Part shown: piece by piece, positions 777-53,817 of the stretch
How the letters are laid out: every line of letters begins with the position of its first letter
How positions within the stretch are numbered: position 1 is the first letter of the stretch
Assembly (NCBI GenBank): GCA_905178155.1
Contig: CAJINV010000002.1
Coordinates: 1,981,216-2,045,215, forward strand
Length of the DNA: 64,000 bases
Direction: 5' to 3'
Source of the DNA: Amoebophrya sp. A120
Lineage: Eukaryota > Protista > Dinoflagellata
The notes under the pieces: generated by a model
What the model was told of the DNA's origin: nothing
The model's database searches: none
Seen by the model: only the letters and a program-made list of their open reading frames with translations
Program-made: the position numbers and the translations under genes

Positions 777-3700
777 TGCACGTACTGGTTCCATTTCGTT
801 TTTTTCTCGTACACGGAAGCAACTTTCACGTTCGGAAACTCGTTCCAATTTAAGGTGAATCCACAGTACGGCCCGAGTTTTTTCTTTCCCGGGAAAACCT
901 TCTTGTTGTTCAACAGCTCGTAGTCCTCTTCTGTGAAAAACGTGTACGCTATGAGAGTGCACAACTCCCCCTCCCCCTCATTTGTATAGCATGAGGAACA
1001 ACAGAAGCAATGCCAAAAATGTAGCCTTTGCATGAGAAATCCGTAAATGGAATGTAGTCCTATTTGGGGGTGCAAAACTTGTCATGCACAGAGTGCTTAA
1101 AGGCAAGCGCAAGGTGTGAGGTAGGTATTTTGCATGACAAATGAGGGGGAGGGGGAGTTGTGCACCGTCATATACGTCCACCCGATCCCGACCTTCTCGA
1201 TCAGTTTGTTGTTGTGAATCAAAGGGATCAAAGACCGCATAAACGGCGCGGGCTTTTGCGGAATGTTTGTGGCTACTTGCTGTGGTGACCCAGGTTGTTT
1301 CGGCGATAAAACAGGCGAAGACAGCGGTTGTTGCGGTCCTGTTTTCAGCATCTCGATTAAGTTTTGCAAACCGGAATTCTCCAAAACCTCCTCCCTTTCC
1401 GATTTCTTCCCGGCTAAGAGCCCGTTATTTTCCAAGAACTTCAGCGCTTCTAACTGTTGTAGATGAGTCGCTAGCAGTTCCTTCTTCCCCTCTAGACTCG
1501 GTCGGTGTTCCTGGGGTAAAACGGTTGTAGGGACTACCGTATTATTCTCCTTCTTTCGCATGTTTTGGAGGAAGTTGTCGCCGACATACTCCAGCAAGGC
1601 GCTGTTCATCGCGTAGAAGTCGTGCGGGACTTATCCACAAAAAAAGACCCGCCATCCCCATCCAGTTTCCCAGGCAAAACATGCATCAGAGCCAGTGCCT
1701 GCCATGCAAAAAATGGATGGGAATGGGTGTTTTTTCCTGGATAGAACTGGACGGGTTGGATCATCGTGGAGCTCAGGATGGTGGCCAAAGATGCGGTTGC
1801 CGAAGAAGCCTGGAGAGGTGGTACTGGAAGAACTTTGAGTTGCTGCTTGTCCTCTTGGGTCGGCACCATTTTTATCGCCTGGTAGCAACCCAAGAACTTC
1901 CTCCACGTCGTGAATGAAATTCTCTGCCGCAACTTCCACGTCGTAGACGAGACCCTCCTGGTTTTCTTGTCCTGCGGCGGAGTAGGCGTTAGACGCTGCA
2001 GCAACGGAAGTAGATCTTCCGCCACCTCGTTCCTTGAAACCCATCATGCCCTCCGGCATCCCCGACATCTTCATGTTTTTCATCAAGGAGGACTTGTTTG
2101 TTTCCTGGAAGTTTTATCCTGTGCAAAAGTATCGTCCTAGTATGAATTGTATATACAAATTCGCTCAGCATTACAAATTAAATCTGTAATGCGGATTTAC
2201 TTTGGCGACTAGATTTGTAATGCAGAAGTGCAATTACAATGAGTACGAGTACGATACTTTTGCGATGCATAAGTTCGCCGTCGTCGCCATAAACGTCACA
2301 TTCTTCGGCTTTTTCAAATCCGGAATGGCCGGGTCCTTCTCTGGTTTTTTGTCTCCGACCCCAACAGAATGCAAAAAGTTCGCCATGTTCGTGGTAAACC
2401 CGGCCATTGCCGCGTACTCATCCGCCTCGAGATCCTCCACAAACTCCGCCGCCGATTTTTCGAAGTCGAAGTCCTTGTGGAGATTGAAGGATTTCGCTTT
2501 GGCAATGTACTCCCTGTACGCGTTTCTCATCTCCTCATCCAAAACCGATTCCGGCACATTCATCTGCTCCTCCATGATACGCAACAAAGACAAATCGTGC
2601 TCATCCGGAACGTATCAACTGCAAATATGCCTGGCTCTGGTAGATTGCGAAACTTGTCATGCTAGTCTGCCATAACTCTGAACTCTGTATTGCGTGGCCG
2701 CGAAGTAGAGCTCCTCACTCTTGCCTGTCATACAAAAACGCAGTTTCTCATGCGGAGTACGCAACTCAGAACCACAGAAATAAAACTTGTCATGCTGGGC
2801 AGCGCATTACAATGTGCTCACTATTCCCTTCCTTGCATCACAAATTTATTCGAGACCCAGACATATTTCTTGCTGCACTGGATAGCACGTACCCCGGGTT
2901 CGTCGCGATTTTCCGCAGTGTTTCCTTCATGTCGTGCACTAAATCGGAGAGTTGATACAACCTGGAATAATTCTCAAGCCGGTTTTTCCGCAACGCCCAA
3001 TACTGGTTCTCCTTCTCCTGCTGCTTCGCGATCTCCAATTCCGATTTTACCCTTTCCTGCTCCGCTAAGATGTCCTGCTGCGCGTCGAATTCCGCTAGCA
3101 TCGACGCAGTGACGGTGCCGAGCTCGAACGCCTCCTCGATTTTTTTTCTTTCAATAATCCGGTTCATTTTCCTCGCCGTTTCCCCCAAGCCGTGGGAAAG
3201 TTTCACACCGGCGTTCTTCAGCGTGAAGTATGCAATGCAAAAGTTGTATCGCACTGAGTACAAATCGCATGACAAACTTTTCCATCATGAACAAAAACGA
3301 AATTTGAATTTTCCATGCTGGTTTGGGTAGATAATTGGATTTGTCATGCATGACTGGAATTATTACTACGAGTACGATCCTTCTTTCAATTCATATGAAA
3401 ACCGACATGTCGATCCCGTCTTTCCGAAACAGCACATCTTGCGGTGGAAGTTGGCCGCGGAAATCTTTACCTTTTTTACTGTGAAGCGCTTTCCGCTTCT
3501 GCAGGTACTTGATCAATGCGACGTCGTGGGCTAACAGATTTGCCCTCGCTTGCTGCGAGGATAAAGCGCTGTAGCCGAGAGTGTCGGATTTGGTCACAAC
3601 CGCGGTGATCGGGTCTCTATTTCGGGTTTTCTTTATTGTCCCACTTCCACCAGCGATCTTCGGGGATGAATCATCATCTGGTGCCGTTGCTCTCGGTGAT

Positions 3701-4946
3701 AAAACGCCGGCGACACCGCGGTAGGGGAAGGGGAGGTTATCGTAGTCAATCGGCGGGACCTGTTGCTCGATCGCGGTGTTGGGTGGTAGATCTTCCTGCT
3801 CGGCGAGGTTCACGGAAAGGATCGGGCTGGCTAAAGAGAATTTACCGTTAAACCGTTCCGCTCGGTCGCGCTCCCACCTGATAAAATTTTCGAAGCAACA
3901 TCATCAAAAGTTGTGATGCAGAACCACATGCGAGACAAAGACAGTAAGTAGAGTCTCAGTCTGTCATGCTGCATGCGAATTGTCTCAAATGACTTCCATA
4001 CTGTTCCAGCTGCTTGATGATCGCGGGTATCCGCATCAACGAATTCTGCTGCGCTTGTACTCTCGCTTCGTGCTTCGTCAACTTCTTGTCCAGCTCGTGC
4101 AACCGCACCGCCGCCGGCTTGACATGCAACCGATCATCCTCGTCAAACGCGTTTTTCAGCGCATTATTCACCGGCTTCGCCAAAATTTTCGGCCGCCCGG
4201 TAACCGGGTCGATCCCCCGGGATTCGAAGTGCGTGGCCTGCTCCTGGAGCTCGAAAAACTTCTGGATTTTCGGGTACAGATCCGCAGGACGCTGTCGGCG
4301 ACCGCGCTCTCCTCCTCGGCTTGTAGGCGACAAATCGAGTTCGAACTCGAAGAAGTTGCTGTCGTCCTCATTGACACTACTGGGGTCGAAGTCGTAACGC
4401 GGACCCGGTGGTGGGCCGATCCTCGAAGAGGAAGCAGGCGAGGTCGCTGTAGCTCCGTGGCCTTTTGTAAAAACGTTATCCCGTCGGTAGTAGGGGTCCA
4501 AGTCCCCGTGTTGGATCGCCGCAGCGAGGTCGGCGTTGTGGGACGAAGAGGCATGATCACCAGAACCGCCGCGGCTGCGCGCCTGGCCGTAGTTCTGTTT
4601 TGGCTCCACGTACCCTCTCGGTTTGTGTGCCGGTCCGTAGACCTGATCCGGGTGCTCGTCGTCCTCGTCATCTTCGTCTTATGCATTGCAAAAGTAGAAG
4701 TACTTCCCGTACCCGTAGTAACTGCGTTAATGCATCACAAATCTGGTTTCCGAGGGGATTCACAATGACAAATTCCATTTGATGTAAGTACTAGTCATGC
4801 TGACGAAATTTGTAATGCAAATCCAAATACCGCTACTGCTAGTACGATACTTTTGCATTGCATACATCTTCCTCTTCCAATTCTGCGAGAATTTGCTGTT
4901 CAGCGGACTGTGTGTTCCCGGAAAGGATGCCTTGAAGGAAGTTCAT
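777..4946 (-). CDS. Gene A, multi-exon hypothetical protein (3' end not recovered); starts MNFLQGILSG
   Basis: ATG at 4946. ORFs 3956-4609, 3391-3813, 2838-3275, 2234-2593, 1631-2086, 1097-1609 and 746-1075 join in frame after removing six TIR elements (each plus 5 nt) and one GT-AG intron (3878-4001). Confidence 0.8.
950..1172. mobile_element. Introner, family 4
   Basis: TIR tatgagagtgcacaactccccctccccctcatttg; TSD tacgc/tacgt; removing 228 nt gives ...GWTYTFF... Confidence 0.9.
1632..1743. mobile_element. Introner, family 5
   Basis: tatccacaaaaaaag...ttttttcctggata; TSD ggact/gaact; removing 117 nt keeps the frame. Confidence 0.85.
2115..2271. mobile_element. Introner, family 2
   Basis: tatcctgtgcaaaagtatcgt...acgatacttttgcgatgcata; TSD agttt/agttc. 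Confidence 0.9.
2613..2884. mobile_element. Introner, family 1 (diverged)
   Basis: tatcaactgcaaatatgcctggctctgg...gacccagacata...ggata; TSD gaacg/gcacg; removing 277 nt corrects the frame offset between the ORFs. Confidence 0.85.
3229..3395. mobile_element. Introner, family 2 (diverged)
   Basis: tatgcaatgcaaaag...acgagtacgatcc...tcata; TSD tgaag/tgaaa; frame restored. Confidence 0.8.
3878..4001 (-). other. Canonical GT-AG intron carrying introner-type motifs
   Basis: Minus strand gtatgg...ttttatcag; 124 nt restores the frame; contains ttgtgatgca and ctgtcatgct. Confidence 0.75.
4680..4864. mobile_element. Introner, family 2
   Basis: tatgcattgcaaaagta...tacttttgcattgcata; TSD cgtct/catct. 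Confidence 0.9.
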
Positions 4947-5596: not shown

Positions 5597-8500
5597 TCAG
5601 CACATCCCACAACACCTGGCCCTCCCTGCGACACTCCTTTCGTAGTGCTGCTTCGTCACCCTTTTCAGTGCCGTCTCCGCCATCCCGCGCCACACGAGAA
5701 AAACGAATTTATCCTTTTCCAGAAAGCTGACTTCGATCGACAACACCTTCTGCATTTGCTTCTGATTTTGGTACACATCCCACAATCCCGCAAGAGCGTG
5801 CGCCGCCGCAACGTCTTTATCAAAATGCCTGCCCCCGCTCCCGATCGCCGGCGCTCCCACCCGGATGATGTCTTGTTTCTTCGGTTGGTTCCTCGCTTTC
5901 TCCTCTTTACTCATCGCCTTCACCGTTTGGATACCGGTTTCCTGCTCTTGCCCGTCCGCACCGACGATGAATCTCGGACTCGGTTCTGGTGTTGGGAGTG
6001 GTGAAGGATCATTTGACGGCACTGGCGAATTTCTTGGGCTGGGCCTCGGTGATTTCGAATTTTTTCTTTCAACCACCGCCTGTCGGTTCGCTATTAACGA
6101 TTGTGATTCGATCTCCAGTAGCGCGTGCGTCATCACGCAGCGCCAAACCTTCCTGACCGACAACTTCGCTTCGTCCACCGTTTTCGCGTTATGCAGTGCA
6201 AAAGTATCGCACTCGTATAAATGCATTACAAATTTCCTCAGCATGAGAAATGAAATTTGTAATGCTACATTTTTGCCTTAAGAACAAGATTTGTAATGCA
6301 TGATTGCAATACGAGTACGATACTTTTGCACAGGATACGCGTAGTCTTCCGCGGATTTCTGAATCAGCCTTTTGTACATAAAATGCTCATCCGCGTTCCG
6401 TTTCATCTATGAAAGCCTCAGAATGGAAATCCTCAACGTGGAAATAATTTGTGATGCATGAAATGCGACGCGGGCGCGGCAAAAAAGACTGTATTGCAGA
6501 GGACGCAAAAATGAAGGCCGACTATTGCCCTTCTACGTGTCAAGAATTGGAGTGCTGATTTTTAGCACCAGAGGAGGGCACCCCTTTGCGTTAACCAGCA
6601 TGACAGGCATGCTTTGAGTGCAGCAAGAGAAATTTGTCATGCGCCGCCTAGAAGTGGCGCTTCAACTGGAATGCTTTTCTGCATTACAAACTATTTCCAC
6701 TTTGAGGATTTCCAACCTGAGGCTTTCATATCATCTTCAACAAATCCTCATCGGAAAACGGGAATCGCGGGACGTGGACGTGTAAGATGTACCGCGTTCT
6801 CAGTCCCGGGTGGTTCAACACGTAGGATAAATCGTGGTCCTTATCGTTATCCCGGCCTATCTGCTCGTGCACCTTCGTGTGGAAATTCACGCCAGTATGG
6901 ATGTGCCAGAGTTGAAATCGACAAAGTTGAAATAATATGTCATGCATAAAATGGATGCCAGTTGGAACCCAGTTTCCAAGTAGCGCATGACAAATCTCGG
7001 CGGTCCCTAAATCCAGTTTGTCATGCTGTTTAGGCAAAGAGGAGCGATTTTCTCATGCTACTTTAGCAGCTCGAGCTGTAACCCTAAACAGGCTTACAAT
7101 CGGCCTCACTTGCCTGCTCTGCAACACACGTGCCTCGGGTCATGCATTTTATGCATTACGGATTATTTCAACTTTGACGATTTCAAACCTGACGCTTCCA
7201 TAGCCAGAAATGTGCCCGTATTTTTCGTCATAGAGTAAGGATGAAGGCACTTCTATCCTGAGTAAAAACGTACCCACGCCAGAGTTGTAATGCAGATTTT
7301 TTTTTTTTTTTTTCATTGGGCCCCACGCCAGAGCTTCAGTTTCAGTTTCAGATTTGCGCTTTCCGGTCTATTTCCGCCGGGGGTTGCGCCGTGTACAGCA
7401 GGTCGACACTGCCAGGAAAATCGATGTGCGCGCCGCATTGGTCCATACAAAGCAAAACCCTAAACCCGTCGGAAACATAAATCCGCATGCATACAGGGGG
7501 GTCACCCCTGAACCCTTTCGAACTTGGACCGGACACACGCATGGAAAATCCCCACGATATAGTTAACGTCTATAGCCGTAAGCCGCGGCGGACGTTGCTA
7601 TGCTGTGGGACGAATAGCAAGGGGGGTCGATATGGGTCGAGACTAAGCGCGATGTGCAGAAAGCCGCTGCACCTGACGGTAGTAAAGATAGGGAGGAGAC
7701 CACTGCGTATGGAGATAGTTGCGCTTAGTGCGCGCTAATCGGGATCTGTGTAAACGCGGATACTGGGAACGCCCTATGCAAACGGGTTTTGCAAACCCGC
7801 GTTTGAAAAACCCAGCGGGAAACACGACCGAACCCCCGGCCATCGATGCATGGCGCGGAAAACATACAGAAACGAACCATGCGGGGTGCCCCCGCGACGA
7901 ACTTTTTTCGCGCGCTACTGTCCCCCGAAATAAACGGTCTGCTGATCTCAGATACTAGCCATAGGGTGCGACCAAGCCAAACGCCAATAATAGAAACCGC
8001 GCACCCTGACGAAGAACCTTTAGACGAAACCCGTAAGCCGCGGGCAATAAAGTTAATTTTTCAAAACTACTCCGGATGCATGTGCAGCTTCAGCCGATGG
8101 CGAACGGTTGGTCGCGATGAAATTTTCAATCTACGAAAAAAATATTTGTAAGTGGTCTCCTTTGGGGCGGGGCCGTTGAACCCACGATGAGGGGGGGCGG
8201 GGACCGTTGAGCCCCGGATTGTACCAGAGTTGTAATGCAGATTTGCAAAGACAGGAAGACTTGTAATGCGCATCCCCATGAGAGCCATTTCCAATCGTGT
8301 TTTGGAATTTGTGATGCTGTGAACAGGATGAGCAGATGAATCTGCGATGCGGCTGCACTTGCTAACCTGCACTACACTGCATAGTGCAACTTGTCATGCG
8401 TGACTCACAAAACTCCTAGGCTTGTGTTGCAGAATCCCCATCCTGACTCTGGTGTGGGTACGTTTTTACTCAGGATAACTTCGGTTTGCAACAACTCACC

Positions 8501-11174
8501 CGGCCGCAATCGGTACATGTCGTTGTACTTGTGGTAGCCGAATTCCCGCGCTTCGGGAAACGCTCTGTCATCATCGTCATCGAGAGAAGCGCGCTTCTTC
8601 TTCGCAGCAGCAGAAGAAGTTGTATCTGTGGTCGCAGCTGCACTGGTGGCGATTGATTCAAAAAATTTCGCCTGGGCGGAGGTTTTGGTCAAAGCATTGT
8701 CTCTTCCGCCGAAGAGGTTGAAGACAGACGAGGTTTTCCTCTGCAACTTCGGCTCATAGCCATTCGGATCCTCATCGACCATCTCCGGCGCGGTCGCGCG
8801 GTGCTTTCCCTCCGCGGCTAATTGCTTGTTCTGCAAGAAATTGCTTTGCACCGCAGAACTCGCTCCAAGAACGGAGGGCAAAGCTTGGGCTATCCAGGAA
8901 AAAAAGTGTGTAAGTGTAACTTTCTTTGAGAAACAGCATCACAAATTTGCTCTACATGACAGAGAAAACCTGTCATGCGTGGCTTGTAAGGGAAAACACA
9001 CACGAAAAGAGGACTTCGTGGCTGTCTGGCATGACAGGTGTAACTCTGTTGCATGTTCTGCAACACAAATTTACACTTACACAGTTTTATTTTTCTTGCA
9101 TATGGGCGGCTGGGTTTGTATTGCTCGTTCTCGGTTGCCCAGACCTATCAAATGTAAAAATGTCTGGGTCTGGAGGATTTCTTGACTTGTCATTCATATT
9201 TTCCATGACCCATGATGTCTGTGATGCATGCCGTAGCATCACAGATTTTGTGAGGGCTTCCTGATGCCTATACCGCATGACAAATGCTCTTTCCGTGTAG
9301 CAAAACTTGGACTATCTTTGCTGCTCATGCAAAAATACATATTTTTTTAGAATCCAAAATCAGCATGAGAAGTTCCATTCTTCCAGACCCAGACATTTTT
9401 ACATTTGATAAGACCTCTCACTGGACGACTGCTGGGAGCGTTCGGAACGATTGCTTGGAGTGCGAGAACGAATGGATCTTGGACTTGGAGTGAGTAATGT
9501 GCTTTCACTATCCTGAGTAAAAACGTCCCCACACCAGAGTTGTAATGCAGATTTGCAAAGACAGGAAGACTTGTAATGCACATCCCCATAAAAGCCGTTT
9601 CCAATCGTGTATTCGAATTTGTGATGCTGTGAAGAGGATGAGCAGATGAATCTGTGATGCGGCTGCACTTGCTAACCTGCACTACACTGCGGAGTGCAAC
9701 TTGTCATGCGTGACTCCCAAAACTCCTAGGTTTGTGTTGCAAAATCCCCATCCTGACTCTGGTGTGGGTACGTTTTTACTCAGGATATTCACCACCACCG
9801 CCGCCTTTCGGTGACCCGGAGATTCGCGGGGAACCCGCTGGCGATTTTGACGGGCCCCTTCGCGGCCCCTCGCCGGGAAGTGCCAGAGTCCCAGACCGTT
9901 TCTTCTGCGCAGAAAATCGCTTGTCTTCATTCACTCCGCCGGTCAGAACCCTTGTGTTGTCCTTGTACCTTGCAACCGCGTCGTTCAAATCCTGAGCGGC
10001 CCCACTGGCGTGCGACCCAGACGGGGTGTGGATCTCTCCTCTTGGTGATTTCGACACAGAGCGTTCTGTCGAGATTTGATGTGCTCGCTGATTCTGCTTC
10101 GATTGATGTGCTATCAAATGCAAAAATGTCTGGGTCTGAAATGTTGCTGGGTTTGTCATGCAGATTTTGAATGGCCCATGATGTCTGTGATGCATGCCCT
10201 AGCGTCACAGATTTTTAGAGGACTTTGTGACGCCTCTACCGCATGAGAAATGCCCTCTCCACGTAGCACAAACTGGAGTCCTTTTCCTGGTCATGCAATA
10301 CAAATTTTTTTAGAATCCAGAGACAGCATTACAAGTTTAGAATCGTCCAGACCCAGACATTTTTGCATTTGATATGTGCACCTCCCCCTCCTCCTCTGGG
10401 CGTCAATTTCGGTGCGGTTAAAGGCACGGGGGAGTTAAACCTCGGTTTCGACCGATCCACGATTTTTCCGAACTTATCCCGGAAAATCACGCTATCCAAA
10501 TTCTTCCTGGTCTGCCGGTTTTGCGCTTCGCGATGGCGATCCATCTGCTTCTTATCCTCGTCCTTACTCGTTTGCCGCATTTGCGCGACCAGCTCCATTT
10601 CGGGCTGATACCGGCCGTTGTCGAGTAATTGGTCTTCCGGCTCGTTGAGGGCTGCAACGGACGCGGTTCGCCGGATCATTGTGCCATCGGTAGCTTCCCC
10701 TGCGTGGCCAGCACCATTTGAATTTTGGCCTGCTTCACCAAACCCGAGCATCTTCTCCCGCATCCTCCTGTTCATCAGAGCTTGTTGGGTCAAAAGCATC
10801 AAATCGTCTTCCGCTTCAGCTCCAGCAGACAACAACCGGTTCCGCGCGATGCACATCTCATGTAAAGTTGCGTCAAACCCTCTGTGTTGCTCATCGCGCC
10901 AGCAGGAGGCGTGGCGAACCCCCTGGAGACAGGGGTTTGTGCTGGTTACCAAGTAATCCCCGTCGAAATCCCGGAGGTCGTGGTTTAGTTTTAAAACGAG
11001 GAACATTTTGAGATTCTGCTTTTGGTCCTTCTTCTTGTTGCTTTCTCCCGTGCTATTGTTTCCATGGCTATCGAGTTCGTGTTGCTCTTGCAGATGCCGG
11101 GTCGCGCGGCCGCCAAGTGCGGAGAACTCGAAGTAGACGTATTGGTCCTTGCCTTTAGATGAATTCGCGGACAT
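5597..11174 (-). CDS. Gene B, 9-exon hypothetical protein (MSANSSKGKDQYVYFEF...RCCGMC)
   Basis: ATG at 11174, stop at 5597. All 9 exons are in frame after removing 8 TIR elements plus one TSD each; checked exon by exon, including small exons EVPSSLLYDEKYGHISG and MKRNADEHFMYKRLIQKSAEDYA. Confidence 0.85.
6190..6337. mobile_element. Introner, family 2
   Basis: tatgcagtgcaaaagtatcg...cgatacttttgcacaggata; perfect TSD cgcgt. Confidence 0.95.
6408..6730. mobile_element. Introner, family 7
   Basis: Long TIR tatgaaagcctcagaatggaaatcctcaacgtggaaata; perfect TSD tcatc. Confidence 0.95.
6896..7202. mobile_element. Introner, family 7-related
   Basis: tatggatgtgccagagttgaaatcgacaaagttgaaataat...attatttcaactttgacgatttcaaacctgacgcttccata; perfect TSD gccag. 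Confidence 0.9.
7254..8477. mobile_element. Introner, family 3, with nested retro-insertion
   Basis: TIR tatcctgagtaaaaacgtacccac; perfect TSD acttc; colinear with the intact copy 9509-9787 apart from the insert. Confidence 0.92.
7297..8223 (-). mobile_element. Non-coding poly(A)-tailed retroposon (SINE-like)
   Basis: T17 at 7297-7313; 21-bp TSD ccagagttgtaatgcagattt at 7279-7299 and 8224-8244; (ctgaaa)n repeats before the tail; no credible ORF. Confidence 0.85.
8891..9102. mobile_element. Introner, family 6
   Basis: tatccaggaaaaaaagtgtgtaagtgtaa...ttacacttacacag...tcttgcata; perfect TSD tgggc. Confidence 0.92.
9146..9410. mobile_element. Introner, family 1
   Basis: Perfect TIR tatcaaatgtaaaaatgtctgggtctgga; perfect TSD agacc. 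Confidence 0.96.
9509..9787. mobile_element. Introner, family 3
   Basis: TIR tatcctgagtaaaaacgt; perfect TSD ttcac. Confidence 0.96.
10112..10374. mobile_element. Introner, family 1
   Basis: TIR tatcaaatgcaaaaatgtctgggtctg; perfect TSD tgtgc. Confidence 0.96.
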
Positions 11175-32639: not shown

Positions 32640-33780
32640 TGCCACACATCACCCAATAATGGGCCATCCGCCTGATGAGCGGGCCACCCAGGCAATACAA
32701 GCGGCGCCGCAAGGGAATGCACCTACCACCACCAAACAAAGCCCAACGAGAGACGGACCAATGGTGGGCGGGGTGGGGCCACCAAGTCCGGGGGCGAAGA
32801 ACATACACACAGAGTGAAGACCCGCACTGCCCGAGCGGGCGGCGGGACCAAGATCTGCCCCCATACCACGAAAGGGAACCCACCGCGCCGCGCCACGAAA
32901 GAGGGCAGGCTCGGATGGCCCCAGCCGCCCCCCTTTCTAAAGGCCCCCCAAATGGCTGGGCGGCCGGACAAGGCTGCCCAAGGGCCGCGCCGCCCGGCCG
33001 CGCGATGGGGCCCGGCCGCGCGCAAGCCCTTGAAGCAGGCCCCCGGGCAGTTACTTACAACAGCGCGGGGCCGGCGCCGGGCCCCTTCGTGTTGCTTGGC
33101 CTTCCCGGCGCCGCGCCGGCTGGTCTGGTGCGTGGCGCGACGTCCGGGCTTCTTTGCAATTTGTTCGCGCGGGGCCTCCTGCACGCACGGCACAGGAACG
33201 GGCGCGAAGTTTTGTTGCGGCACGCGCTCGGCCCGTTTTCCTCCGGGGCCGGATTTGGCGCGGGCAGTCCGCGCCCGCCCGCCGCCGCCCACATCGGCTC
33301 CGTCCCTCCGCGTCCCTCCGCCGGCCGCCCCCGGGCTGCCAGGTCTGTACGGGCCGCGCGCTGCGCCGGCGCCTTGCTCAATCAATGCCCAAAACACAAG
33401 GCCCGCCCCACCCTCCGGGGCGGATCGCTCACGAAGAAACTGGGCCGCCGGTCGCGCCGCCTACTCATCCGCGGGGGCGAGCGGAGCCCGCCGGGGGCGG
33501 GCCATGCTCCAGCCGGGCCCAGAACGCCGCCGCCGCTTGCAGGTGGCCCGCCTCGGGTTTCCCCGCCTCACCGGCGTCGGCCAGAGGCGAGAAGCCTGCC
33601 CGCGACCTCGTCCGGAGTTGTGGGGCGGGACATCTTGGCAACGGCCTCGCGCCCTGCCTCGGTTCCTGCGGCGAGGGACACCACCAGCCCGGACCAGGGG
33701 GGGCCTGGCGCCAAGCCAGAAGCCCGAAAATAGAAGGCCGCATCCACCTACAAAGCCTCCGCGTGTGTTTCTTTCGGCCG
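32640..33780. other. Extremely GC-rich intergenic island
   Basis: For example 33301-33360 is 50/60 G+C; only Ala/Arg/Gly/Pro-rich overlapping ORFs; boundaries approximate. Confidence 0.7.
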
Positions 33781-34444
33781 TAGGCTCTGTCGAATAAACG
33801 GAAAACAGCAACACCTACTCAAAGAACACCTGACGGCGTGGTCGTGTATTTCGGGATCAAATGTCACGTCGGCACGGTGCAGCATCACTATCTGAGTCGC
33901 TGCCGTGGCCTCGAGACTGCGCGCGCTCGCGGATTTATCTTCTTCAACAATCATCAATGCCTAGCAAGCTTCTGCATCACAGTGGTTCATATTCGTACAA
34001 CAAGCGCAGGAAAACAGAAGTCGCAGCACGATTCAGATTTTACAAACGCGATCGCGATCATCAACGGGCCAAGATAACTCACCTTCAAATAACATTTTGA
34101 GAGTGTTCATTGGTGACTTTCAATTTTAACAATGAAATGCGTTATTTCATGCGGAATACGAGGAGCACATAAATCTACAGCTGCTTCTTGTTTTTACAAT
34201 TGAAACTACGGCCGTCGCAAAGCTTCGGTTCTGTCTGTCTGTACTACGTGAAATACGGTTTGAATACTGGCAACATGATACAGGCTCAGGCAATGCTTCT
34301 GCGCTGCCCCTAAACCTCAAACTCTGAAAAAGATGTGAACAAACGCTGAAGTAGTAGACAGTTTCAATTTATTTCATCTTACAAGCGCCTCAACATATAT
34401 AATGGCATTTTTTCTTTCCACACAACCTCCCTTCTTGTTCTTCA

Positions 34445-39949: not shown

Positions 39950-41850
39950 CATACTCACGGCTGCCTGGGGCCTGTGCCCCGGCCGCCACCAACAGAGCCG
40001 GGCGCAGCGGCATGCGCCTGTTCTTTGTTTGCTATACAGGCAACGCGGGCAACATCAGGCGCCCTGATCGAGTTTACACGCGCGGGCAGATAGAAAGACT
40101 GACTCGCGCCACCCACGGCGCACTGACATGCGCCACACACGAAAACCGCATACAAATCGGGGCGCCGCCGTATAAATCAATCTCGCACGCTCGCGCAGAT
40201 TCTAGGCGCGGCAGGGTGCGCCCCCTGGGCGACCCCATCAGAAGAAAGTAGCCGGGCGGCCGGCCCGCCACACAGCCGGGCGGACTGGGTAGAAATAAAA
40301 GCCCCGGGCCAGGCAGGGGGCTTCCGACACACCAAACCGCTACGGGCGCACGTGCGCGCGCCCGGGCGGGGTCGGGCGATGGGGGAGGGGTCGGCCCGCC
40401 GCGTTCTTTTTCGGCCGGGCTGCTCGGCTTCCGCGCCTGCCTCATTATGTTGCCGAACGGCGGGCCCCCGCGTATTGGATTTCGTCTCCTCCATGCTTCT
40501 GCGCGCGGCCCCCCCGATCGGCCACGGCGGCGCGCTTGCTGGTCATGCCGGACCCCGCCAAGCCCCGCGAGCAGACGCCCGGCGGCGCGTGCCTCGACGC
40601 GCGCCGCCACAGGGCTGCCGCAGAGGCTAGCACCCGCTCTTGCCCAGCCAAGACAACAGCGCTACTTTCTCGCGCCGCGAAGCTAGCCGCCCCCGCCAAC
40701 AGGAGACATGTTCTGCGTGCCTGCAATTGGAAGTGATAGCTTGGATTAGCAGCTGCGCACATCGAGAAAATTCACCAGCCTCACTGTCGATATGAATGCA
40801 CTCCCTGACAAGCGCAACGCCTCCTCATCTCATGTCCACAACGCCAGCGTCACATCGTGGCAGGTAATACTCTCAGCTTCGTCACCAACAGTGTCTCAGC
40901 CGCTCTTTGGAAGGTCAGCTATTTCCTCTCTGGTGCGCTACCTAGCGCTCTCCAACAAGGTTAACGTAGGAAATGATCGAAAAACAACCCGCGAACAAGA
41001 CTCGCAAACCGAGAACGAGATCCTCGACAGCATAAGCCTCAGCTTACAATATGGCGCAAAAGGGCTTCGAAGAATTCGATTCCTGATCCTGGCGACAACG
41101 CTGGCCCACTATATACACTCTCGGTACTCTGGAGCAAGCTCCCCGACCAACCTTCACAGGCGGCGAAGGCAACTGCAGCGGCCCTGCCAGGGCAAGGACA
41201 ACCACAGCGCCAGCGATGACTGCTCTGTGCGGGAGCAGCGACTAGCCGCGGTCGCCGCAGCTTCTGTACATGCAGAGAGGCCACGATCAACATGCCGGTC
41301 GGGAGGGGCGTGAGCGGAAATAAAAACGCAACACCAGCTGAGGGGCGCCACTGGGGCCAAGATCGGGCCACTCTTAGAATGCGGGCGAGGTGGGGGGCAT
41401 CACGGAGCCACAACCCAACCCCTCGCGCCGGCTGGTGTTTTTCCAACCGAATCCGCGCAGGTGGCTGCGGGCGCCCGCACTTCTGGCGGCGGGGGCCGGC
41501 GCCGGCACCATCGAAACAGGGGCCGCGCCGGCCGGCGCGGTGAATAAGCTCGGGCGGGCCGCCGCCCATCGGCATGGCGCCAGCTGTGGCCGTCTTGCGG
41601 CGTCCGAGTCGGTCCGGAACATCGTCCAAGAGCCGCCCGCCCGGCCCGTGAGGCGTGGCCTGCAGTCGTGGGCGCAGAAGCGTCTTCGTCGCGCTGCGTT
41701 CTTCGCCCAAATCGCGCCGCCCGCTGTTGATTTTGTAAGGGACGGCGCCGGCAGCGCGAGCGCGCGCGGTGTGGGCGGCAACGTGGCATCCCCCGGCACT
41801 CTATCCGGCACACCGCCGCTGCCCTAACGAGCGCGCCGCCGCCGTCAAAT
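39950..41850. other. Two GC-rich intergenic islands (~39950-40740 and ~41150-41850)
   Basis: Abrupt composition shift; no credible ORF; boundaries approximate. Confidence 0.65.
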
Positions 41851-42456
41851 GCTTTTACATAAGTACTTCGGTCAGTTCGTTCAGTTGTCGCATTCTTATT
41901 GAAAATAGACAGGACTTGCACGACACACAGCGGTGGCCGCTCTCTGCACTCTTTATCTCAGCAGCCCAACTCCACCACCACGCAGTCGCAGCATCTCATC
42001 TTCTATCTTAGCAAATGCAAAACTCATAAGTACCCAACTGCTCGACGTCGCACTCACATTCTCAAACTCAAAATCTCATCACGACGACAACGAAACGTCG
42101 AAGCTGTCCTCGTTGAGAAAACGCCGACATCGAGAAATCCTGGTGATTATCCCATCAAACTCATCTTCTGCTTGAGCAGTGTCAAAACAGACTAGACACG
42201 GTTACGGCCCACAGGCACGAAAATGGCGAAGAACCGCAACAGCGATGGTGAACCAAACTTTCTCGACGTCCTAGTCAGGATTTGACTGCAAGTGGTCAAT
42301 ACCATGAAGATCCTCATAGTCAGGCCACGATGGGTGCTGGTGTAATCGACTGTGTCCTTTGGTTTTGTAGTTTTTCCTTCAGCCTAGCCTAAACCCCATT
42401 CATCCGAGCAAACAAAGTAGAGGCCAAAAAAGCTGCGCCTGCAGCCTTCACCGCTT

Positions 42457-46506: not shown

Positions 46507-47169
46507 TGTGAATTGAAATCATAGAACATACATAGAGATAGAGAGCCTTCCCGTGTTGAACGAAGGAACAGGTGGGCTAAGATACATGTAATTATGTCCT
46601 CCGTCGGGGCAGGTCGGGCACACGACTTCCTAGTACTTGTAAATACTCATCCTCAAGCGAGAACTAACGCCCTCACACTAGAGGCCCGAACGCGGTGCGT
46701 TATGGTTATGGAGACTGTGTGATGAGCACGAAACAACAACAAGCAGGAACAGGAAGAAGAGCCTCGTCCAAGTAATAAACAAAAAGCGGCGATGGAGTGC
46801 AAATAAAAGATCTGCAAATTTGAGAGGCGAGAAGCCGCTCAGCCGGTTGCCACTCATACTGTTCTCCTACAACGTCTGGACGTGTCGCTCTCGGTCTCAC
46901 ACTCAACTTAGCAAATGCATGGAGAATCAACTTAAAAAGGGGCTGTAGGTTTGCTCCAAATTATCCAATCGCCAACAATAACATGATGGCAACACGCTCA
47001 TCTCATCAAACCCTCAATCCGCGGCGAGCAAGAACATGGTAGGCCGAGCGCCTGCCAGCATTCAGTTGTAGTTGACGCGATCATTGCAAGCACACTGTAA
47101 CCCCAACTTCATCGGACAACTCACACCCCCAGGGGCGGCTGAGTTTACCAACCTTTCTCACCCTACTAG

Positions 47170-49210
47170 CGCAATGCGACGCCACACCCTGCGCAATCGA
47201 CGGCAGCTGGGGGAAACAAGCGAAAACGCCGGCGCGCCGGCCCGCACTTGGAAAAAGCGCGCCGAGGGGGAAGCACTCGGGCGCCAAGCATGCAACGTGT
47301 CCGGGCCGGCGATCCTGCGCTCCAACAAACGGAAAATGGGCGCCGTTCGCCGGCTATCATCAGAGAGGGAAAGAGCCAGCCCCACAGGGGTTCCGGTTCG
47401 TTCCGGGGGCTTTGCCGGTGCGCGACAGCCGCCGGAGATGGAAGGGCCCCCCGCGGGCCCGTCCCCCCGCGCGTAAGTTGGTCGGCCCGAAGGAAACACG
47501 GCCCGAAGGAAACACAGACAAAACGGCCCCGGGCCGGCGGGGCACGAGCTGGGCGGGGCCACCATCCACCGGGCCAACAGACGGCGCGAGCAAAGGGCGG
47601 GCGCGCGGGCCTTGTATGTCTGGGGGGCCAGTCGCCGCTGCATGTCCCAAAGCCCACTGTCGACCGCGCGGGCGCGCGCCGTCTGCGGCGCGCCCACCTA
47701 TCTGGCGACGGGCGGGCGCAGCCGCGTCGGCGGTGCGCGGGCCTCCTCGCGCCGTGCGTTTCTTTCCCGGTCGGCCGCGGGCGCGAGCCCTATCCCCCTT
47801 TGCCCGTCGTCAGCTGCCGCGGGCGGCAGGAACAATCGGGGCCCTAGGTAGCGCCAGATAACGCCGTCGCGCTCGCGCTTTGGCTTTGCGCATGCGCGCC
47901 CACCCATCGAACCCAATTGCGAGGGGCGCAACCGGGCTAAGTTTTGATGCTGTTTGCGTTAGTAGTCGTAATGCGTGCATGGTGGATGTTCAGAAAACAA
48001 CTCGGACGCAAGTCGCGCTCCGCCTCTCTTCCGCTCATCCCTCAGTGAGAATCCCTCCGCGTCCATGCTTCAGAATAAAGAGCGACTGCTGGTGGCATCC
48101 ATGCATCTTCACCTTCAGAACCATCGCGGCATATCTTCGCACGACTTCTTCTTGGCTGCAACAACTACAACAGGCTCCACAGCTTGTACAAACAACATCA
48201 ACAGCTAGTACAAGTCTAAGTCAGCTGCTTTGCCTGTAGTTGTATCTTCCTTTTGTCTCGGTCCCCAACCATCACGAGCAATACTACAATCCAAGCGAAC
48301 AAAACCTGCAGGCTCTTCTTCACCGACTACAAACACTGCGCCGACCACATACAAAACAACTGCAGATCGACGTGGCCATCAACGACGAATAACAATAACT
48401 AAGATCGAAAAACGATGCCCACTGGAAAAAACCAAGGCAAGCAGGGCGACACGAGGCTAGGGGACACACAAAGGGCCGAATCACCTCTGTGCGCCCCTCC
48501 CCGAAACAGATAGAAGCGGAGCTAAGCCACCACGGCCGTTGGTCCGGCCGCCGGGCCAACGCGTGTCTGCCACTGCGGAGTCTAAAATAAATGGGCACGA
48601 CCAACCTGCTGCTGGGCCTTATTACGGGGCGCGCGCCGGCGCACTTGCTTGACCGCGCTGCCGGCCGCACGAGCCCAGGCCCCCCCAATAAAAAGCGGCC
48701 CAGGGGCCAAGAACAGCACGAGCCCAGGGGCCCCCCCGTACGCATCGGGCGGGCGCCCGGGGTGGGCTACAAAACTGGGAGCCCGCGCCCGGCAAACGGC
48801 CGGCCGCTGGGGCGCCACCCGCTTCACACGTTACGGATTGCCGGCGAACATGTTGCCGGGGCTTCATCAGCTTCGTTGCCATTATGGGGGAGCCAAGTGG
48901 CGCGCGCTTTCCCTGATCTCCTTCGCCGTTTCTCTTCAGCGCAGAGCCTGGGCCCGCCGGCCCCTCTCAACAACAGTAACAGAGGAACACGCGCGCGCCA
49001 TGTTGTCGCGGCCCGACGCGATGCCGGCTACCCAGAAGGCTAGCGGGCCCGCGACGCGTACGGGCGGCGGCGTTTCGGAGAAAACTCTCTCCGACACGAG
49101 TCACCAGCGGCCCCCGCCCTTCTGCGCCCCGCCAGGTTTCATTCGACTGCCACAAGCTCAAAACCTGGGCCCATTGTATGTTGTTTGTATCTGCTTCCCG
49201 GCGGGCCATC
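47170..49210. other. Two GC-rich intergenic islands (~47170-47940 and ~48460-49210)
   Basis: Composition shift as at 32640-33780; boundaries approximate. Confidence 0.65.
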
Positions 49211-49738: not shown

Positions 49739-51690
49739 ATATAATTTCACCTTCTCTGCGCAATTCACCCATAGAGTGAACGCGCGCGCAACCAACGGAA
49801 GCGAATGACGTGCAGAAGTAGCGCGTCGCAGTGATAGTCGCAAGACCTCGAGCGACAGTCACAATGGCAGCTAAGAGAGAACCCGGCCGGCACAACGAGC
49901 TACGGGTAGCAGGCCATGCAAGCCAGGCTCTCGACCCCCACAGAGCCATGCCCCGGACATAGAGGTGGCCCAAGCCGCGAGACGCGACTGGGACCGCCGA
50001 ATATCTAGGGCGGGCTTGCGAGGGGTGCCGCAAGGGGTCTCGCGACCTCAAGTCGGGTGGGAGGGTGGGAAAAAACGCAAAATCTAGGCGAGCCAAGACA
50101 ATGCGGTATTTCTGGAAAAAGGACAGAGACCCAGCCGAAGCTGGTCGACACCGGGCAGCCAGCCCGGTGTCGGAGTGTGCAACCCTCTTGCTTGATCATG
50201 TGAACTGATATAATCGCTACGCGACGCATATAATTTCACCTTCTCTGCGCAATTCACCCATAGAGTGAACGCGCGCGCAACCAACGGAAGCGAATGACGT
50301 GCAGAAGCGCGTCGCAGTGATAGTCGCAAGACCTCGAGCGACAGTCACAATGGCAGCCAAGAGAGAACCCGGCCGGCACAACGAGCTACGGGTAGCAGGC
50401 CATGCAAGCCAGGCTCTCGACCCCCACAGAGCCATGCCCCGGACATAGAGGTGGCCCAAGCCGCGAGGCGCGACTGGGACCGCCGAATATCTAGGGCGGG
50501 CTTGCGAGGGGTGCCGCAAGGGGTCTCGCGACCTCAAGTCGGGTGGGAGGGTGGGAAAAAACGCAAAATCTAGGCGAGCCAAGACAATGCGGTATTTCTG
50601 GAAAAAGGACAGAGACCCAGCCGAAGCTGGTCGACACCGGGCAGCCAGCCCGGTGTCGGAGTGTGCAACCCTCTTGCTTGATCATGTGAACTGATATAAT
50701 CGCTACGCGACGCATATAATTTCACCTTCTCTGCGCAATTCACCCATAGAGTGAACGCGCGCGCAACCAACGGAAGCGAATGACGTGCAGAAGCGCGTCG
50801 CAGTGATAGTCGCAAGACCTCGAGCGACAGTCACAATGGCAGCCAAGAGAGAACCCGGCCGGCACAACGAGCTACGGGTAGCAGGCCATGCAAGCCAGGC
50901 TCTCGACCCCCACAGAGCCATGCCCCGGACATAGAGGTGGCCCAAGCCGCGAGGCGCGACTGGGACCGCCGAATATCTAGGGCGGGCTTGCGAGGGGTGC
51001 CGCAAGGGGTCTCGCGACCTCAAGTCGGGTGGGAGGGTGGGAAAAAACGCAAAATCTAGGCGAGCCAAGACAATGCGGTATTTCTGGAAAAAGGACAGAG
51101 ACCCAGCCGAAGCTGGTCGACACCGGGCAGCCAGCCCGGTGTCGGAGTGTGCAACCCTCTTGCTTGATCATGTGAACTGATATAATCGCTACGCGACGCA
51201 TATAATTTCACCTTCTCTGCGCAATTCACCCATAGAGTGAACGCGCGCGCAACCAACGGAAGCGAATGACGTGCAGAAGCGCGTCGCAGTGATAGTCGCA
51301 AGACCTCGAGCGACAGTCACAATGGCAGCCAAGAGAGAACCCGGCCGGCACAACGAGCTACGGGTAGCAGGCCATGCAAGCCAGGCTCTCGACCCCCACA
51401 GAGCCATGCCCCGGACATAGAGGTGGCCCAAGCCGCGAGGCGCGACTGGGACCGCCGAATATCTAGGGCGGGCTTGCGAGGGGTGCCGCAAGGGGTCTCG
51501 CGACCTCAAGTCGGGTGGGAGGGTGGGAAAAAACGCAAAATCTAGGCGAGCCAAGACAATGCGGTATTTCTGGAAAAAGGACAGAGACCCAGCCGAAGCT
51601 GGTCGACACCGGGCAGCCAGCCCGGTGTCGGAGTGTGCAACCCTCTTGCTTGATCATGTGAACTGATATAATCGCTACGCGACGCATATA
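49739..51690. repeat. Four near-identical tandem units of 486 bp (first 489 bp), each joined at atata
   Basis: Units start atataatttcaccttc at 49739, 50228, 50714 and 51200; the ORF track repeats with a 486-bp period. Confidence 0.97.
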
Positions 51691-51706
51691 AGATCAGTAG
51701 CTAGAA

Positions 51707-51826
51707 AAGGCGTTTTTGAAGGCTTCCACGACGCTACTCCGCCGACATCCAGCTCCACGGATTCGCCCGAATCCGTGGAGCTGGATGTCGGCGGAGTAGC
51801 GTCGTGGAAGCCTTCAAAAACGCCTT
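51707..51826. repeat. Perfect palindrome, 59-bp arms with a 2-nt spacer
   Basis: aaggcgtttttgaaggc...ccacggattcg-cc-cgaatccgtgg...gccttcaaaaacgcctt. Confidence 0.97.
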
Positions 51827-52001
51827 ATATACATAAGCTATTAAGCTAACTAAAAACAAAGCATTTTCACTAGCTAGTTCGGTTCAGTTCAGTTCGACGC
51901 ATTATCCTGTTTCAGTTAACCGCTCTGAAATTAATCGATTGAATCGTGGATGTGCGTGCACTACTATCATCTTCTTTTCCTTCCAGGGGTGTAAGGCTCG
52001 T

Positions 52002-53396
52002 CTATCGCAACACAAAAGTTCCGTCGTTTTCCCGTACGAACCACACCCCTGCTACGTTCATTTCTTCCTTTCCTGAGTTTTCGCAGAAATAGACGTCACT
52101 GACTTCGAAAGCCACCTCTGGGTCCCCTTCCACCTCCCACTGCCCCGGCCTACTCGTTGAAGCTCTCCACTTTTTTCCTGAAAGTTTTTCTACAAGAGCT
52201 GCAGCAGCTTCAGCTTGTTCAGCTTTCTGTTGTTCGAGCCGAAGGCGCCTCTCCTCAAGCATTTTCTCCGCCTTTTTCGACCGCTTTCCCCGCTCGGGCC
52301 CTTTCTTCTTTTGCTCCCTTCTCCCAGTGGCGTAGGGCCGTCGCCGTGTCAGCGTTTCCCTTGTGGCCGCGCCCGTTGGCTTTTGTGCCACCAAGTCGTC
52401 GAGGCTGAAGTTGTAAAACTCGAGGTCTTCTGCGGCTTTGCGGCCCCATGGCGTTTTTTCCTGGATTTCTGTCCTGACACGGGACAAAGAACCCTCCCCG
52501 GTTGTGTCCCGTGCTGTGTGTGCGATCCAGGATATCCGTTTTTCCCGAAGCTCTACTTCGATAGCCTGGACCCCAAGCATGCGGCACATCTGGTCGCGGG
52601 AAGGCGCGCCCTGCCAATCCCAATAACCGAGGATGTGGCGCAGCACCTGGGTCTGAAAGCTCCGAAGGATCTTCTCGTCTTCTTCCGAAGTCGCCCAGGT
52701 TTCGGCGTTGTACAGGGCGACGCTTAGCGACAACGCGCGGTAGAGCCCTGCCTTGAGGTGTTTCGGTACTTCTTTGTCGCGCCAGATTTTTGTCAACGAC
52801 TTAACTGTGCTCAGCGCCATCGCGCATCGCCTTTTCGTTTCGGACGTAGTCGTTGCATTCCGGTCGATTTCTGTGCCCAAGTACACAAAACGCTCCACCG
52901 TGGCTATTTGCTTCCCACCATGCCATACGTGAACAGGCTCCGCCACCGCTGCCGCCTTTTCGCTTTTCTTCTTTCCCTCTACCTGTCTGGCCACCCGTAG
53001 GGTTCTCTGTTCCTGTATGGTTTTGTCCTTGCGGCAGAACCCGGTGGCCAGGTGGTACTTCAGCGCGGTGGCATCCTCCAACACATCGCCGCACCTCGGG
53101 CAACGGTGCTGGTTGTGTTTCTCGAGGATGTACTCCCGGCGGCCTAGCCTCGTGATCCGCATGGCCCTGCCGTTGTCGAGCGTGGCCCACCCGGATGCCT
53201 TCATCTTGATGATGTTGAGGAGTCCGTTGTCCCACACGGCAAGGTGGGTGGGGACCAAGTCCCCCATCAGCTTCGTTGACACCGCTGCCGCGGCAGCGCG
53301 GTATTCTCGAACCAGGTCGATGCCGTCCCATTCCACGAGGAACCCATGGACTGCCTTGGCCCCCTCTTCTTCGCTGATCATGCACCGCTCTGTCAT
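52002..53396 (-). CDS. C-terminal part of an RTE-like non-LTR retrotransposon protein (C2H2-like zinc finger plus RT domain 7/thumb), 5'-truncated but open (464 aa)
   Basis: VERFVYLGTEID...ETKRRCAMA...LTKIWRDK...KAGLYRAL...LYNAETW...FQTQVLRHILG is typical of the RTE-clade C-terminus; CPRCGDVLEDATALKYH; no YxDD or endonuclease; (gaact)n tail at 51876-51895. Confidence 0.85.
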   Translation of the reverse strand: MTERCMISEEEGAKAVHGFLVEWDGIDLVREYRAAAAAVSTKLMGDLVPTHLAVWDNGLLNIIKMKASGWATLDNGRAMRITRLGRREYILEKHNQHRCPRCGDVLEDATALKYHLATGFCRKDKTIQEQRTLRVARQVEGKKKSEKAAAVAEPVHVWHGGKQIATVERFVYLGTEIDRNATTTSETKRRCAMALSTVKSLTKIWRDKEVPKHLKAGLYRALSLSVALYNAETWATSEEDEKILRSFQTQVLRHILGYWDWQGAPSRDQMCRMLGVQAIEVELREKRISWIAHTARDTTGEGSLSRVRTEIQEKTPWGRKAAEDLEFYNFSLDDLVAQKPTGAATRETLTRRRPYATGRREQKKKGPERGKRSKKAEKMLEERRLRLEQQKAEQAEAAAALVEKLSGKKWRASTSRPGQWEVEGDPEVAFEVSDVYFCENSGKEEMNVAGVWFVRENDGTFVLR

Positions 53397-53817
53397 CGCA
53401 ATTTAATATATAACTACCTTATTTACACCGAAAAAAAAAAACTGTATCCCTTTGGGTAACTAGCCTGTTGGGCACGTTACTGCCGTCATAGTGCGCTACA
53501 TGTTTTTACTAAAACTGGGTACGAATAAACAGGTCGAGGTGGCGTTCGTCATCTTCTGACTCAAATCAAACTTCAACTTGGTCATTGCAATACTGGGTGT
53601 GGGTCGTGGTCGATGAAGTTGTTCAAACGAAAAAAAATGCAACATAATTTGAAAGAGTAAGAGAAAGAATGAGATTCCAAAAAAAAAAGAATACAAAAAT
53701 GTGCTAGATGAATTTGTTTTGATGTACTGAGGTACTCGTACTACTGATAAAAAAGGTAGGACCAACGAACTAGGAGTACGAGTACTTCTGCTCTGCACCC
53801 TTGAATAAACAAGAACT

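Follow-up and report, generated by a model that had tools for sequence, protein, structure and literature searches.

The window, by which we mean the whole 64-kb stretch of Amoebophrya sp. A120 DNA analysed here, carries on its minus strand an introner (8477-7254) that interrupts a host gene and holds a poly(A)-tailed insert within one of its own arms (Table 1). The introner is bounded by 32-nt terminal inverted repeats (TIRs) that match at 31/32 positions and by a 5-nt direct repeat outside them, and its TIR begins in agreement with the TAT + 7 nt + AAA pattern described for introners of A120 (PMC7789003). The 32-nt TIR, the 5-nt direct repeat, the presence of three copies in the window and a contig in which the flanks are joined identify the host element as an Amoebophrya introner. 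The insert takes up 924 nt (8223-7300) of an introner that would otherwise measure 279 nt, and a 21-mer is duplicated on its two sides. Since the first three A of this 21-mer also belong to a run of 17 A (7313-7297), the target site duplication (TSD) is given as 18-21 bp and the tail as A14-17. The nick in the window arm lies 11-14 nt inside the inner edge of the TIR, leaving one whole TIR outside the insert, and no second copy of the insert was found within the 64-kb window. The sequence statements of an earlier note on this DNA, concerning the end of the element, its target, the sister introner and the match of a 12-mer to the target, all held on recheck. Its reading of the 21-bp TSD as the product of target-primed reverse transcription (TPRT) was borne out as well, as the insert combines the poly(A) tail, the TSD and the 5' truncation of non-LTR insertions.

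Table 1. Features of the insert, its host introner and related elements in the window.
Feature	Position	Strand	Remarks
Host exon upstream of the introner, ending with the 5-nt direct repeat (8482-8478)	8478..8890	-	X1 contig with 0 differences; open frame
Left introner TIR, 32 nt	8446..8477	-	
Introner internal part	8245..8445	-	With TIR, 95% identical to sister 9509-9787 over 255 nt
5' copy of the target duplication (18-21 bp)	8224..8244	-	
Main module of the insert, lacking 5' sequence that other copies have	7430..8223	-	No Pfam match for the three longest frames (103-114 aa)
3' module of the insert, ~80 nt	7353..7429	-	Two further occurrences in L002; predicted stem-loops
Three hexamer repeats with CTGAA core, plus one G	7334..7352	-	
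12-mer identical to target 7284-7273	7322..7333	-	6 nt repeat the end of the 5' duplication, 6 nt continue the target
8-nt trailer before poly(A)	7314..7321	-	Unlike the introner continuation; only a 6-mer in common with the L002 trailer
Poly(A), 14 nt (17 including three A of the duplication)	7300..7313	-	
3' copy of the target duplication	7279..7299	-	
Right introner TIR, whole, with rare C at 7278	7254..7285	-	
Second direct-repeat copy (7253-7249) and 46-nt host exon (7248-7203)	7203..7253	-	
Sister introner without insert, same family, 279 nt	9509..9787	-	
Third introner copy, 78%	54368-54646		
5'-truncated APE+RT LINE copy with CTGAA-core pentamer tail	51876..53402	-	Candidate mobilising family

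One 3023-nt contig from run X1, which is RNA by our guess, joins 7248 to 8478 and thereby skips 1229 nt, with five letters that fit either side of the joint, and the same contig also joins 6890 to 7203. The joined host exons contain 0 stops in 206 codons, compared with 11 stops in the same frame when unspliced. The joint and the open frame together support the proposal of the earlier note that the host frame is recoverable with an intron of 1229 nt. We infer that the joined form derives from the allele that carries the insertion. X1 also has an exact 710-nt contig that spans the 5' junction of the insert with an overhang of 30 nt, where our bridging rule asks for one more, and run X2, from the same sample as X1, covers this junction too. 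The TIR hairpin is predicted to form 31 pairs with a mean probability of 0.95, whether the insert is present or absent, and the 12-mer is predicted not to compete for it. Since it is oriented outward and entered the arm inward of the TIR, the element leaves the terminal hairpin undamaged and would itself depart with the introner. No homologue was found for the first exon of the host protein, and the raw RNA run X21, with one read on the window, was uninformative on expression.

The insert itself codes for nothing recognisable (Table 1), and its comparison with the LINE protein described below gave no match below E 0.85. A head derived from a Pol III RNA was likewise not found, the window copy being 5'-truncated: ARAGORN reported 0 genes, there was no Rfam match near threshold and no B box, and seven runs of four or more T were counted. 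No snRNA or tRNA head was found either. SINEs are short, some hundred nucleotides, and the insert measures 890 nt in the truncated window copy and 2,559 nt, in modular form, at the second locus described below; the label 'SINE' is unproven for it. The search for a structured RNA or ribozyme in the insert gave no Rfam match of note, the folding z-scores of seven module pieces ranged from -0.3 to +1.8, and covariation was weak, with one double change in 14 pairs over three sequences (equalled in 179/500 shuffles) and one in six pairs over two sequences (233/500 shuffles). At 7395-7411 (minus strand) a relative represented by an X2 loose end shows, by eye and in this one sequence, two compensatory changes in a 5-bp stem whose 7-nt loop holds a 6-nt palindrome.

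A candidate for the machinery that mobilises the insert lies in the same window. The 466-aa frame at 53402-52005 is identical in 463/466 positions (99%) to residues 833-1298 of CAD7947541.1, an Amoebophrya sp. A120 protein of 1298 aa that holds intact APE and RT domains in one frame and, to judge by its motifs, may belong to an RTE-like LINE. The window copy of this LINE is 5'-truncated and ends in a pentamer tail that has the CTGAA core of the insert hexamers. When the insert was aligned with the LINE 3' end, only this CTGAA repeat aligned, at a score reached by 18/300 shuffles, and neither poly(A) nor a TSD was seen at the LINE copy. The APE+RT LINE may be named, from sequence comparison, as no more than a candidate driver of the insert. 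Autonomous non-LTR elements have been reported from the A120 genome (PMC7789003). Several further observations concern this LINE and its surroundings. An apparent C2H2 finger lies inside the RT region of the window LINE, the fragment alone being without a Pfam match; a relative is annotated in Amoebophrya AT5.2; and towards the C terminus of the related 1371-aa LINE protein P0031 lies a domain resembling the histone chaperone ASF1 (E 1e-14). Directly adjoining the LINE 3' end, at 49739-51831, a 486-nt unit is repeated four times head to tail (99%), and a perfect hairpin of 64 nt (51702-51831) comes after the repeats. Elsewhere in the window, G+C-rich islands at 33000-34000, 40000-42000 and 47000-49000 reach 0.59-0.68 against a background of 0.50, and the frames tested in them gave no Pfam match of note.

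Sequencing depth indicates that the insert belongs to a family of repeats. Over 7503-7625 the X4 and X5 contigs have depths of 258 and 378, compared with 24.1 and 43.7 for a 14-kb contig, and over 7803-8172 their depth is two to three times the level of the 14-kb contig. These values point to roughly ten copies for the 3' part of the insert and fewer for the 5' part, contig depth being a rough guide rather than a copy number and X4, X5 and X7 representing one sample. Since other copies run past 8214 into sequence that is not introner, the window copy is 5'-truncated. Among the loose ends listed (24/48), other copies depart from the window sequence at 7355 (X4, X5 and X2) and at 7335 (X7), and the sequence after the hexamer repeats differs among copies. 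An X7 loose end at 7595 was considered as a further flank and rejected, since this sequence lies within a relative (at about 7550-7570 of L002). At position 7420 the window has A where nearly all X1, X4 and X5 contigs have C, which may be an assembly error or a private change. A scan of metagenome contigs gave two loci, L001 and L002, that are 92-94% identical to the insert; in genome contigs there were 0 matches for a 23-mer, while a 16-mer gave 120 prokaryotic loci, none of which extended, and viral contigs gave 0 matches for three DNA patterns and none for the LINE protein. The multi-copy retroposon family implied by the earlier note is thus upheld by the depth and by L002, as a family of non-coding, related copies.

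At L002 (JACKZZ010011803.1) the insert copy, 94% identical to that of the window, lies in an introner of the same family (1749-4609) with the direct repeat on both sides, and this introner is situated within a gene for a protein kinase, which has an open frame when the introner is taken out. The L002 insert (1992-4550) is modular, each block ending in a short repeat that mostly occurs three times, and has an A12-15 tail and a TSD of 8-11 bp. It occupies the opposite arm, again pointing outward, and the nick at TTGC^AAA is 44-47 nt from the introner end, similar to the nick of the window insert at TTGC^AAA, 43-46 nt from the end. The 12-mer is absent from L002, the final 40 nt of which agree with the target there over no more than 4 nt in sense and 5 nt in antisense orientation, and the 6-mer that its trailer has in common with the window trailer, GGGGCC, is only 6 nt long. 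L001 represents the same event as L002, with agreement in 2236/2238 and 3393/3395 aligned bases, and it lacks about 290 nt between the repeat tails and differs in its 5' flank. The two loci have ~5.9 kb in common at >99%, both flanks differing and the breakpoints lying in the introner and in the repeat tail, and the difference between them reflects either recombination between repeats or misassembly. A relative at L002 about 6940-7914 has some blocks of the L002 insert, no poly(A) and no family match beside it, and therefore counts against strict specificity. Modules with short-repeat ends are shuffled between the two L002 elements, and a 240-nt block that occurs in both (85%) has a terminal hairpin with one compensatory change.

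Given two independent sites, the insert likely favours one introner family and, within it, one register 43-47 nt from the end. Both independent, fully read sites (2/2) fall in this family, out of roughly ten copies; the criterion applied in PMC4494074 is that one sequence flanks >20% of copies. Such arms account for 1.9e-4 of positions and 4/254 GCAAA sites in the window, and a preference for the short motif alone gives the second site a chance of up to 10%. It is possible, though on the unlikely side, that there is no real targeting, that the endonuclease simply likes TGC^AAA-type sites, that selection keeps those inserts which spare the hairpin, and that the common family is a coincidence, with the 12-mer still being a local scar. 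The small number of sites (n=2), the finding that 3/30 TTGCAAA sites of the window are these very arms, and the large share of introners in the A120 assembly (17%; PMC7789003) are compatible with such a coincidence, but at least 90% of the TTGCAAA sites lie elsewhere, many of them in other introner families, and the two sites agree in family, in register and in outward orientation. Of the site-specific SINE for an introner family that had been suggested in the earlier note, the preference for family and register is thus supported by two sites, whereas the SINE class is unproven, no tRNA or Pol III head having been found.

The 12-mer between the hexamer repeats and the trailer is identical to the neighbouring target, while the sister introner (9539-9528) carries T at the one variable base, and C at this base occurs in 1/9 family arms examined. 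A 12-nt match to the 60-nt target was reached by 2/3098 control tiles of 40 nt outside the family and by 5/200,000 shuffles, and the match is far beyond chance. If 8223-7334 and a single CTCTGG are taken away, what remains is a 27-bp duplication without mismatch that encloses a stub of 22 nt (8 nt + A14). The end bearing the 12-mer (last 30 nt) is contained in one exact X4 contig with a depth of 23.1, compared with 24.1 for the 14-kb contig, and the 7310-7340 bin has a depth of 32 in X4 and 71 in X5, that is, 1.3x and 1.6x the single-copy level, which leaves room for a second copy bearing the 12-mer. A local target origin of the 12-mer would explain, without a guide, why it has the rare C, why it is centred on the 5' junction and why its depth is close to that of a single copy. 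We therefore regard the 12-mer as likely this target's own DNA, copied during this single insertion, and not as a guide. The element may conceivably have introduced the rare C at 7278 itself, with T at 8223 as a 22nd base of the TSD; we set this idea aside, as a TACAA repeat in the family and in the target can supply the T. The earlier note had proposed a test of whether the 12-mer is constant or co-varies with each target, and neither is supported: the loose ends of other copies diverge after the hexamers, at 7355 or 7335, so that the 12-mer is not constant, and the 3' segment of L002 does not correspond to its own target.

Taken together, we favour with moderate confidence the view that a LINE reverse transcriptase integrated in trans a non-coding, multi-copy poly(A) insert with a likely preference for the ends of one introner family, and that the 12-mer is target DNA acquired in this single insertion, the one-off template switch that the earlier note had listed as an alternative and that fits best. 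The steps of such a one-event insertion can be inferred as follows. The LINE endonuclease would nick the bottom strand at TTGC^AAA, and the T-rich end would prime on the poly(A); after 8-12 nt the cDNA end would pair via a TGGG microhomology with the top strand of the target and copy about 8 nt, whereupon the reverse transcriptase would return to the RNA at the hexamer repeats, copy about 890 nt and join at 8224/8223. The insert would then be spliced out together with the introner, which would serve as a safe harbour. L1 insertions that hold DNA templated near the insertion site, as well as template switches, have been reported (PMC11702581). Two sequential insertions could have left the same arrangement, a 22-nt poly(A) stub with a TSD of 24-27 bp being followed by a hexamer-tailed body that entered its 5' TSD copy with a 6-bp duplication of its own. 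This sequence of events reproduces the observed sequence exactly, tandem SINEU-3 insertions that sandwich a TSD have been described (PMC4494074), and both the window LINE and the L002 relative end in short repeats without poly(A). However, with thousands of arms to choose from, the body would have had to strike the very 27 bp already hit, and L002 has the body, short trailer and poly(A) in one piece without any sandwiched target. Since this layout is like that of the window insert, a single RNA is favoured, and we consider the two-step version distinctly unlikely. A local origin of the carried target copy, by one event or by two, is nevertheless quite probable when both versions are taken jointly.

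A local scar of a single template switch does not account for two extra A at 7353, which are absent from most other copies and create a 9-nt match across the first nick, and this is the best point in favour of the explanations that invoke a guide or a transduction. In the latter, also raised in the earlier note, a hexamer-tailed mother copy would have resided in a C-variant arm or in a related TIR family, transcription would have read through to polyadenylation about 21 nt downstream, and the daughter would have landed in a similar arm. The variable sequence after the hexamers is what transduced flanks would produce, the match grows to 13 nt with those arms of the family in which G follows the 12-mer, and related TIR families have the same subterminal motif (L002, about 6060-6095). 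Yet the 8 nt that follow the 12-mer continue none of the nine arms, the rare C would be needed in both the mother and the new target, the depth reveals no evident mother, the trailer of L002 is not introner sequence, and no source copy with the 21-nt segment as genomic flank was found in the window, L001 or L002. In our view transduction of an earlier target is unlikely. The remaining explanation is targeting guided by RNA, in which the segment before the poly(A) would pair with the bottom strand of the target, set the second nick and be rewritten at each target. The two matches occur in the order expected, the 12-mer with its centre at the 5' junction and the 9-mer across the first nick; the TSD measures 21 bp in the presence of the 12-mer and 8-11 bp in its absence; and annealing of short RNA segments to the target has been proposed for SART1Bm and R1Bm (PMC7265360). 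Against this, L002 was hit at the same register with no match longer than 5 nt, two segments from loose ends of other copies, whose own targets are not among the sites read, match the window poorly (2 mismatches at best, and 0 matches), and the pairing described for SART1Bm and R1Bm is at the priming end and not upstream of the tail (PMC7265360). RNA guidance thus appears very unlikely, and the same low probability applies to its strongest form, a self-reprogramming element with RNA-assisted TPRT that would use introners as safe harbours, its 9+12-nt imprint of the nick sites pairing with the next target and setting the second cut.

The preferred reading, a one-event insertion into a favoured arm, has parallels in several known systems. 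In crocodilians SINEU-3, which is mobilised by Tx1-Mar, was inserted in Mariner-N4_AMi in 313/347 cases (PMC4494074). This retroposon lacks autonomy, as the insert does, generates a TSD and, as is likely for the insert, prefers a single position in one abundant TIR transposon that is itself non-autonomous; its tandem copies sandwich target sequence (PMC4494074). In contrast to SINEU-3, the target in Amoebophrya is an introner that is spliced, both arms are struck, and the preference is based on two sites rather than on 313/347. Likewise, the insertion of Tx1L into Tx1D in Xenopus, cited in PMC4494074, represents non-LTR machinery of the APE type aimed at a non-autonomous DNA transposon, although Tx1L is autonomous whereas the window insert is non-coding and its driver only a candidate. 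The 3' tail of UnaL2/UnaSINE resembles the individual modules of the insert, for which stem-loops are predicted, in having a stem-loop followed by a short repeat that usually occurs three times (PMC1636434). Unlike UnaL2/UnaSINE, the insert has a trailer and poly(A) after the repeats, TSDs of 8-21 bp and chained modules, and the candidate LINE has only the repeat in common with it. Non-canonical L1 insertions, with target-adjacent DNA, template switches in the TPRT product and two RNA templates, provide a further likeness, but the L1 cases are put down to processing of the reciprocal ends, (PMC11702581), while for the window 12-mer, which lies between tail repeat and poly(A), such an origin is our proposal.

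The host element itself agrees with the description of A120 introners, with inverted repeats of the TAT + 7 nt + AAA type, a 5-nt direct repeat and non-canonical ends, and that account, in the parts covered here, does not describe a retroposon nested in introners (PMC7789003). Some A120 introners have been reported to derive from non-LTR elements (PMC12130899), which is a different relation from a retroposon nested in an introner. In the literature searched, which was mostly open-access, we found no description of retroposons residing within introners of Amoebophrya, and supplements may hold the repeat. The supplements of PMC12130899 gave 0 matches for five motifs (files 13 and 14 excluded, long cells in part), Amoebophrya is not named in supplement file 3, and the supplement of PMC7789003 gave 0 matches for the TIR motifs.

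In summary, the insert represents an undescribed modular retroposon with a probable preference for one register inside introner arms, from which it would be spliced away. Guidance by the carried target copy would matter far more, but is unsupported. Retroposons that are aimed at other transposons are already known from vertebrates, and landing just inward of an introner TIR would give such elements a new kind of shelter, as the insert would sit in the middle of a coding gene, be co-transcribed with it and be removed with the non-canonical intron. The landing site inside the introner arms is likely harmless as well as preferred. Moreover, both loci are natural tests of splicing in Amoebophrya: an intron enlarged from 284 to 1229 nt that is still joined at the same direct repeat, with only the terminal hairpin kept, supports the view that the inverted repeats define these introns.
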